This document shows positions 26,915 to 27,689 of a stretch of 64,000 nt of DNA, piece after piece. The notes beneath the pieces were generated by a model that saw only the letters and a list, made by a program, of their open reading frames with translations, was not told the DNA's origin and did not search any database. The stretch lies in the NCBI RefSeq assembly GCF_058153355.1, contig NZ_CM177019.1, one strand, 5' to 3'. The position numbers and the translations under genes are program-made. Numbering within the stretch: position 1 is the first letter of the stretch; each line of letters begins with the position of its first letter.

Positions 26915-27253
26915 ATGGTAAACAACTTCATATCTCTCCATTGCCTCTCACGAAAGGAACTGGACACACTGATCGAGCACGAATTACAACTGATGCTGGC
27001 TGAAGGCTTTGACAAGTCCCCTATTTCCGCCAAGGCCCTGCATATTCGGCTCAAGGCAAAAGGTATCGTTAACGGTGGTTTAAGTACGCTGAGCAGCCTT
27101 GAGCGAAAACGCCTAATTGCTGCCTATGTTGATCAGCAACTTGGCCCGTTGAATCTACGCCCAAAAGAAAAACAGCAATACGTCAACCGCAAAACCCGTC
27201 AGGCCTTGCTGGCCAGAAACCAGCAGTTGCAGGCGGAAGTCAGTGAACTGTAA
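26915..27253 (+). CDS. Hypothetical 112-aa protein with basic, coiled-coil-like C-terminus
   Basis: ORF MVNNFISLHCLSRKELDTLIEHELQLMLAEGFDKSPISAKALHIRLKAKG..LLARNQQLQAEVSEL; the same frame continues as a further ~40 codons after the stop. Confidence 0.35.
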   Translation: MVNNFISLHCLSRKELDTLIEHELQLMLAEGFDKSPISAKALHIRLKAKGIVNGGLSTLSSLERKRLIAAYVDQQLGPLNLRPKEKQQYVNRKTRQALLARNQQLQAEVSEL

Positions 27254-27689
27254 GACCAACTGGCGCAGAATACCCTATCGTTGATAGAAATTGTCAAAGC
27301 GGTAAAAATCAATACGGTTATTCCGGTGGAAAGTCTGTTGGCCAAACATGTAATTCGGGAGTTACACAAGTCGTCATAATGCTGGTTATAATTTTCGGCA
27401 AAGGGCATGGACGATTTCTTTCCGTCATTCTGTATATTGCTTACCTTCCCAAATTTCTCCAACCGTTAGTTGGAGAAATTAGATGAGTCGTAAATCATGA
27501 ATAAACCCTTTGCTCTATTCGAAAAATGAGCATGGCAACTTTCAACACCCCCTCTTCTGAGTCCATTATCTCAGAGGGCGTTTTCCACTGTAATGCTCTG
27601 TTTGGTTCATTGCATCAGTTTAATTTTGCTTATAACCAAATTCAATATCTAGTAAAAAAAGATTATTAAATAAAGTAAGAAAATCAGGC

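Follow-up and report, generated by a model that had tools for sequence, protein, structure and literature searches.

A probable pseudogene of the fourth gene of a GInt-type island downstream of hipA in Escherichia coli, bearing a deletion-fused 5′ end and a premature stop codon

The stretch of DNA analysed here (the window, 64,000 nt of contig NZ_CM177019.1) covers the lsrK / autotransporter / hipBA neighbourhood of Escherichia coli, with a small ORF located in island sequence downstream of a remnant of hipA (Table 1). This ORF starts at ATG 26915 and stops at TAA 27251-27253, which gives a 112-aa product, and the same frame then runs on for 41 sense codons (DQLAQ...HKSS) up to a second TAA at 27377-27379, exactly as an earlier sequence-only reading had described it (about 40 codons). 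That reading proposed either a nonsense mutation in a longer gene or a read-through arrangement, and likened the product to small regulatory or IS OrfA-type proteins.

Table 1. Features of the window around the 112-aa ORF, with the basis of each assignment
Feature	Position (nt)	Strand	Basis or comment
hipA 3′ remnant, last ~55 codons (ORF 26635-26802)	26626-26802	+	Collinear with the hipA 3′ ends of L001, 214-4 (L009), ETEC1738 (L010) and K-12
Backbone downstream of hipA, up to and including the left attachment core TATGTTAAAT (26897-26906)	26803-26906	+	K-12, L009, L010 and window identical through ...TATTATGTTAAAT, then diverging
Retained left-terminal island leader (49 nt), upstream of the ginA-like gene in the intact form	26907-26955	+	98% identity to L010 11348-11396
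Junction of the ~3,923-bp deletion, 2-nt AA microhomology	26954-26955		BLAST against L010; sequences at both breakpoints
112-aa chimeric ORF	26915-27253	+	12-13 leader codons and native ginD-like codons 4-102, then premature TAA
Premature TAA in place of native codon 103, halfway along the long predicted helix 82-123	27251-27253	+	Alignment to CAA/CGA; structural model
In-frame continuation: native codons 104-144 and native stop (27377-27379) of the ginD-like gene	27254-27379	+	Alignment to intact genes
Rearranged cargo remnant of the island	27380-33666		Annotations of relatives; K-12 backbone homology returns only at 33667 = K12rc 2719
Fragments of the MbcA/ParS/Xre-antitoxin region	within 27380-33666		Annotations of relatives
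LRR protein gene	28610-29812	-	Island cargo
Xre-HTH fragment	30023-30202	-	Island cargo
Ankyrin-repeat gene	30945-32909	+	Island cargo; 654 aa

A search of 5.8 billion proteins identified full-length homologues of 142-148 aa in hosts including Pectobacterium, Dickeya, Serratia, Klebsiella, Cronobacter, Erwinia, Providencia, Proteus, Aeromonas and Acinetobacter, with conserved residues also found past the position of the window stop, and the intact homologous gene encodes 144 aa in both E. coli ETEC1738 and 214-4. Shorter entries were partial or truncated and mostly from E. coli, and proteins ending exactly at 27253, the observation that the sequence-only reading had named as evidence against a longer gene, were not found except as the same rare TAA allele. 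All homologues are annotated as hypothetical and none has a Pfam domain; when Pfam, NCBIfam and PHROGs were searched with the 112-aa, the concatenated and the intact protein, only sub-threshold noise came up (DUF2935, HALZ, phrog_3507). The family is small, since a profile search of 1.84 billion representatives gave only 102 clusters.

The continuation matched the 3′ end of the intact 144-aa genes with 97-98% DNA identity and contains the invariant or near-invariant family residues N109, I116, V120, K121, T124, L131, L132 and A133, and hence is not a chance open frame, but is the rest of the gene, not yet degraded. In a three-way DNA alignment, the window TAA was placed opposite CGA (Arg) in the intact E. 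coli copies and CAA (Gln) in the closest relatives. Since the intact homologues have one of these sense codons at this position, the window stop is, as read from the alignment, a single C-to-T nonsense mutation at native codon 103, and the proposal of a longer gene with a nonsense mutation was thus borne out. According to the AlphaFold model of the intact protein, the mutation falls halfway along the long predicted helix, with the loss of 42 residues including the invariant N109 and I116.

The stop might instead be subject to programmed read-through or recoding, giving products of 112 aa and ~154 aa, as the frame stays open for 41 codons past the stop, with conserved sequence encoded there. 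We consider this reading almost certainly wrong, as every intact homologue and close relative has a sense codon here instead of a conserved stop, TAA was present in no complete E. coli genome (0 of the 17 that matched a 61-nt probe spanning the stop), and there was neither a stable, potentially stimulatory RNA structure past the stop (z = 0.21) nor an Rfam match. Furthermore, TAA is neither a selenocysteine nor a pyrrolysine codon. The downstream frame would still be open because the mutation is recent, given the rarity of the allele and the existence of a contig identical to the window. A sequencing or assembly error could also account for a single-base difference from relatives, and was refuted, leaving it a practically negligible probability: the exact 112-aa product is on record and was read in the same neighbourhood in three independent sequencing runs, with one of the contigs 100% identical to the window across 9,759 bp. 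The TAA allele is genuine.

The 5′ end of the ORF is also not native. BLAST comparison matched window positions 26626-26955 to ETEC1738 (L010) 11067-11396, and window positions 26954-27384 to L010 15320-15750, a jump of 3,923 bp at 26954/26955 into codon 4 of the small gene with 2 nt of microhomology (AA), and homology to the intact gene starts no earlier than 26954. The sequence lost comprises the ginA-, ginB- and ginC-like genes described below, the first three codons of the small gene and its native Shine-Dalgarno sequence. The ATG at 26915 is located 8 nt within the island, and together with the first 12-13 codons comes from a normally non-coding leader; in the intact element the same ATG opens a leader ORF of merely 20 codons, out of frame with the ginA-like ORF. 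The native start codon overlaps the stop codon of the 788-aa gene ahead of it, which indicates translational coupling, and has AGGAG in front of it; both elements were removed by the deletion. There was no Shine-Dalgarno-like sequence ahead of the new ATG and no promoter-like site on the plus strand upstream of it. The sequence-only reading overlooked this earlier 3.9-kb deletion, by which the gene had been truncated and its apparent start codon created.

The left flank carries damage of its own. The interior of an autotransporter gene is fused straight to the last ~55 hipA codons (window 26421-26627), representing a separate deletion of ~4.4 kb when compared with E. coli 214-4, which took most of hipA together with hipB and the 3′ part of the autotransporter gene; the window lineage has therefore lost the hipBA toxin-antitoxin module. 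Further upstream, in window 24850-26648, identical sets of ORFs repeat at an offset of 521 nt (for example 25348-25542 and 25869-26063), with long identical stretches in the ORFs at 24850-25761 and 25758-26648, which indicates a probable tandem duplication within the autotransporter pseudogene.

E. coli 214-4 contains an intact element at exactly the same site, where hipA is followed by genes of 466, 516, 788 and 144 aa with overlapping ends and then by variable cargo. Family members from Pectobacterium (L003-L005), Acinetobacter (L006/L007) and metagenomic sequences (L020/L021) are likewise embedded in this four-gene module, with gene products of 449, 503, 723 and 136 aa in the most distant metagenomic relatives. 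In BLASTP comparisons with the GInt proteins of E. coli IAI1 and O157:H7 EC4115, which were taken from Additional file 10 of PMC10214605 and not from the original GInt set (ref. 34), the matches of the first three proteins were position-specific: protein 1 (466 aa) matched GinA of EC4115 (E = 1e-15) and IAI1 (E = 1e-9), protein 2 (516 aa) matched GinB (E = 3e-10 and 2e-5), and protein 3 (788 aa) matched GinC of IAI1 over ~530 residues (E = 1e-13 to 2e-14), including the ...R(T/S)H(I/Q)PRH...GR...QN..Y.H region, and GinC of EC4115 (E = 2e-8). Proteins 1 and 2 have Pfam Phage_integrase matches, and the 788-aa protein has no Pfam match.

GInts are islands with a ginA-ginB-ginC-ginD operon (2017, PMC5385486), of which defence-carrying examples have been described in E. 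coli, where at least one integrase match at E < 1e-5 served as operational criterion (Hochhauser et al. 2023, PMC10121019). The module passes this threshold, with the reference integrases coming from a later curated survey. The A-B-C-D order of three integrase-type genes and a short gene at the island end was found in the intact relatives, with A-C missing from the window, and the 788-aa protein is similar to GinC, which is described as a large recombinase-fold protein, usually annotated as hypothetical, that lacks part of the catalytic set. The cargo downstream of the small gene differs among ETEC1738, 214-4, Pectobacterium and Acinetobacter and is often defence-related (AbiJ, TIR, AAA ATPases, ABC-three-component system), with the first ~700 bp past the small-gene stop being common to the E. 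coli elements. The E. coli copies examined also show site-specific insertion, with an imperfect direct repeat of the kind that flanks GInts (10-11 nt) at the ETEC1738 island. The intact element thus resembles a GInt in its four co-oriented, overlapping left-end genes (two recombinases, a large recombinase-related protein and a small helical protein of ~130-145 aa), in its variable, often defence-related downstream cargo and in its site-specific insertion with a short imperfect direct repeat, and differs from curated GInts in having larger proteins (466/516/788/144 aa versus about 400/435/540-740/128-132 aa). The window itself differs further from a GInt, as the damaged fourth gene and the attL side are the sole survivors. 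This large-protein lineage is common in Pectobacterium, Aeromonas, Klebsiella and E. coli.

Genes of inoviruses (filamentous phages), encoding the replication protein G2P/CRI, Zot and coat proteins, were found immediately upstream of the module in Pectobacterium L003 (1-4305) and Acinetobacter L006 (1-4575), and were not present upstream of the module in L004 and L005; this adjacency may reflect a common hotspot or a functional association.

The fourth protein resembles GinD in position, size and predicted architecture, with a sequence match to the curated GinD subfamily tested that is marginal at best (hhalign probability 0.3-3%, E 0.015-0.25). Shallow profiles of the 144-aa protein and curated GinD gave an hhalign probability of 0.3% and our own profile score gave z = 0.3, while deeper profiles gave a co-linear alignment of 119 columns (E = 0.015, probability 3%). 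A global alignment (hhalign -glob) was discarded as meaningless, as it consisted of an end-overlap only. The AlphaFold models of the 144-aa protein and GinD (pLDDT 86.5 and 82.3) have a common layout of four N-terminal helices, a linker, a helix of ~40 residues and short C-terminal helices, and the conserved motifs sit on equivalent elements of both models. We conclude that, within a GInt lineage, the 144-aa protein is the accessory protein in the GinD position; that it is an orthologue of GinD is unproven, and GinD may have been replaced in the module by a non-orthologous protein. We give little credence to the proposal that the 144-aa family is an independent unnamed accessory family which replaced GinD in one GInt lineage and, separately, that the fused N-terminal fragment, kept in some E. 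coli lineages, could occupy GInt ends as a decoy and so prevent the hipA hotspot from being invaded again. There is no Pfam, NCBIfam or PHROG model for the 142-148-aa family, which could be annotated as the fourth, GinD-position protein of the large-protein GInt lineage.

Experimentally, excision of a GInt as a circle needs all four genes, GinD included, and GinD was reported to have low similarity to TnpC of Tn554 (PMC5385486). By description, TnpC is similarly encoded by a small gene, the third or fourth of a transposon with tyrosine recombinases, and stimulates and orients integration, although Tn554 has two recombinases instead of the three recombinase-type genes found here, and Gram-positive hosts. 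Another multi-recombinase module with a small accessory protein is found in SEs (strand-biased circularizing integrative elements, with the gene order intA-tfp-intB-srap; Idola et al. 2023, PMC10214605), where Srap has a C-terminal coiled coil and is needed for recombination (attL x attR), and the 6-nt spacer logic at the element ends is shared. A small helical protein with a coiled-coil-like C-terminus could as well be Srap, or an OrfA protein of IS3 type, as a GInt component. We consider this extremely improbable, as the module order is int-int-large-small rather than that of SEs, and none of the four proteins of the curated SE from E. coli 214-4 (IntA, Tfp, IntB, Srap) resembled the module proteins in sequence; the hipA locus of this strain is not in the SE survey table although the SE of that genome is (PMC10214605). 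Nor did we find the features of an IS3-type OrfA, namely an HTH transposase domain, an overlapping OrfB DDE gene with -1 frameshift, a nearby transposase ORF or IS ends, and there were 0 transposase-related Pfam/NCBIfam matches. Of the earlier likening to small regulatory or IS OrfA-type proteins, the general character (a small, helical accessory protein of a mobile element, whose C-terminal helix is long) was retained and the assignment to an IS family was dropped. In E. coli 214-4 (NZ_CP025840.1) the curated SE lies at 2.536-2.541 Mb and the GInt-type element at hipA lies at 4.291-4.297 Mb, so that both systems can conveniently be compared in one genome.

All E. coli copies examined begin directly after the left core sequence downstream of hipA. 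The ETEC1738 island has an imperfect direct repeat of 10 nt at its two ends, TATGTTAAAT on the left and ATAGTTAAAT on the right, each followed by a 6-nt spacer; its ends (L010 11338-11353 and 32448-32469) read TATGTTAAAT / AGCCTA and ATAGTTAAAT GGAATT / TGAGTG, and the empty site of K-12 reads GTTAAAT CATGTC TGAGTG (L016 reverse complement 2242-2264). The combination of a repeat with a variable 6-nt spacer recalls the footprint of 6 bp known from SEs and Tn554. The window, which retains the left repeat copy alone, had no match to the right end of the ETEC1738 island and lacks this right end together with 467 bp of backbone (yneL region). The K-12 yneL segment was rejected as a remnant of the same element, as it is backbone that is likewise found on the right-hand side of the ETEC1738 island. 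Lacking GinA-C and its right end, the remnant is immobile and the ORF is without a plausible role. The site just downstream of hipA can be added as an insertion site of GInts with defence cargo.

The identical deletion junction was detected in 18 of 5,426 complete E. coli genomes with a 62-nt probe spanning the junction. All five of these that were read base by base had CAA at the position of the stop and had lost 1 bp (GG to G) close to the 3′ end, while the window retains GG and has the TAA without a frameshift. In 6/6 such records inspected, RefSeq labels the equivalent feature a 'frameshifted' pseudogene, an example being C6996_RS05210 of E. coli 2013C-4282 ('hypothetical protein, frameshifted'), which has the same deletion-fused ORF at the same site downstream of hipA and differs from the window in the alleles just described. 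The different lesions (frameshift versus nonsense) in sister lineages after one shared deletion indicate independent decay and relaxed selection.

Maintenance of the junction in 18 genomes, and of the entire predicted N-terminal helical domain (native residues 4-80) in the 112-aa product, could also point to domestication of the fused ORF as a functional protein, for example a DNA-binding fragment that acts on GInt ends to regulate cargo or hinder related incoming elements, and transcription is reported to enter ginA of GInts from outside the element (PMC5385486). Such a role seems unlikely, with only a slim chance of being correct, since the window and sister lineages were disabled differently and at different positions, the native translation signals and coupling are gone with no replacement recognisable before the new ATG, the recombinase partners and the island right end are absent, and RefSeq calls the locus a pseudogene. 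Instead, the ORF is very probably a twice-damaged pseudogene of the small fourth gene of a GInt-type island near hipA.

The ancestor of this pseudogene would have been the 144-aa fourth gene of an island inserted just downstream of hipA, with a left-end operon encoding two tyrosine recombinases (GinA-like and GinB-like), a GinC-like 788-aa protein and the small protein. By analogy with GinD and Srap, the latter is most likely a recombination accessory factor, whose N-terminal helical domain of DNA-binding type may engage the ends of the element or the recombinases, and whose long C-terminal helix may serve oligomerisation or recombinase contact. The 3.9-kb deletion would have taken the three recombinase-type genes, three codons and the ribosome-binding site, with a chance in-frame fusion to the leader ATG; having lost its partners, the gene would have been left without a job and free to drift, from CGA via CAA to TAA in the window lineage, with the 1-bp frameshift in place of TAA in sister E. 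coli lineages. The locus carries little weight in itself and is a textbook case of a mobile-element gene that decayed step by step once its partner genes were lost. Annotation pipelines already flag the sister alleles as pseudogenes, and the 112-aa chimeric ORF, which ORF callers will present as a gene, is properly annotated as a pseudogene fragment.

The piece of Xre-type HTH gene in the remaining cargo is N-terminal, and in intact islands it adjoins the MbcA/ParS/Xre antitoxin gene. In the window it is separated from the antitoxin region by ~2.4 kb containing the LRR gene, and the cargo has therefore been rearranged. The LRR protein has a run of KTS repeats, with a repeat number unlike that of E. 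coli 2013C-4282, and both this protein and the ankyrin-repeat protein look unusual for E. coli and effector-like.
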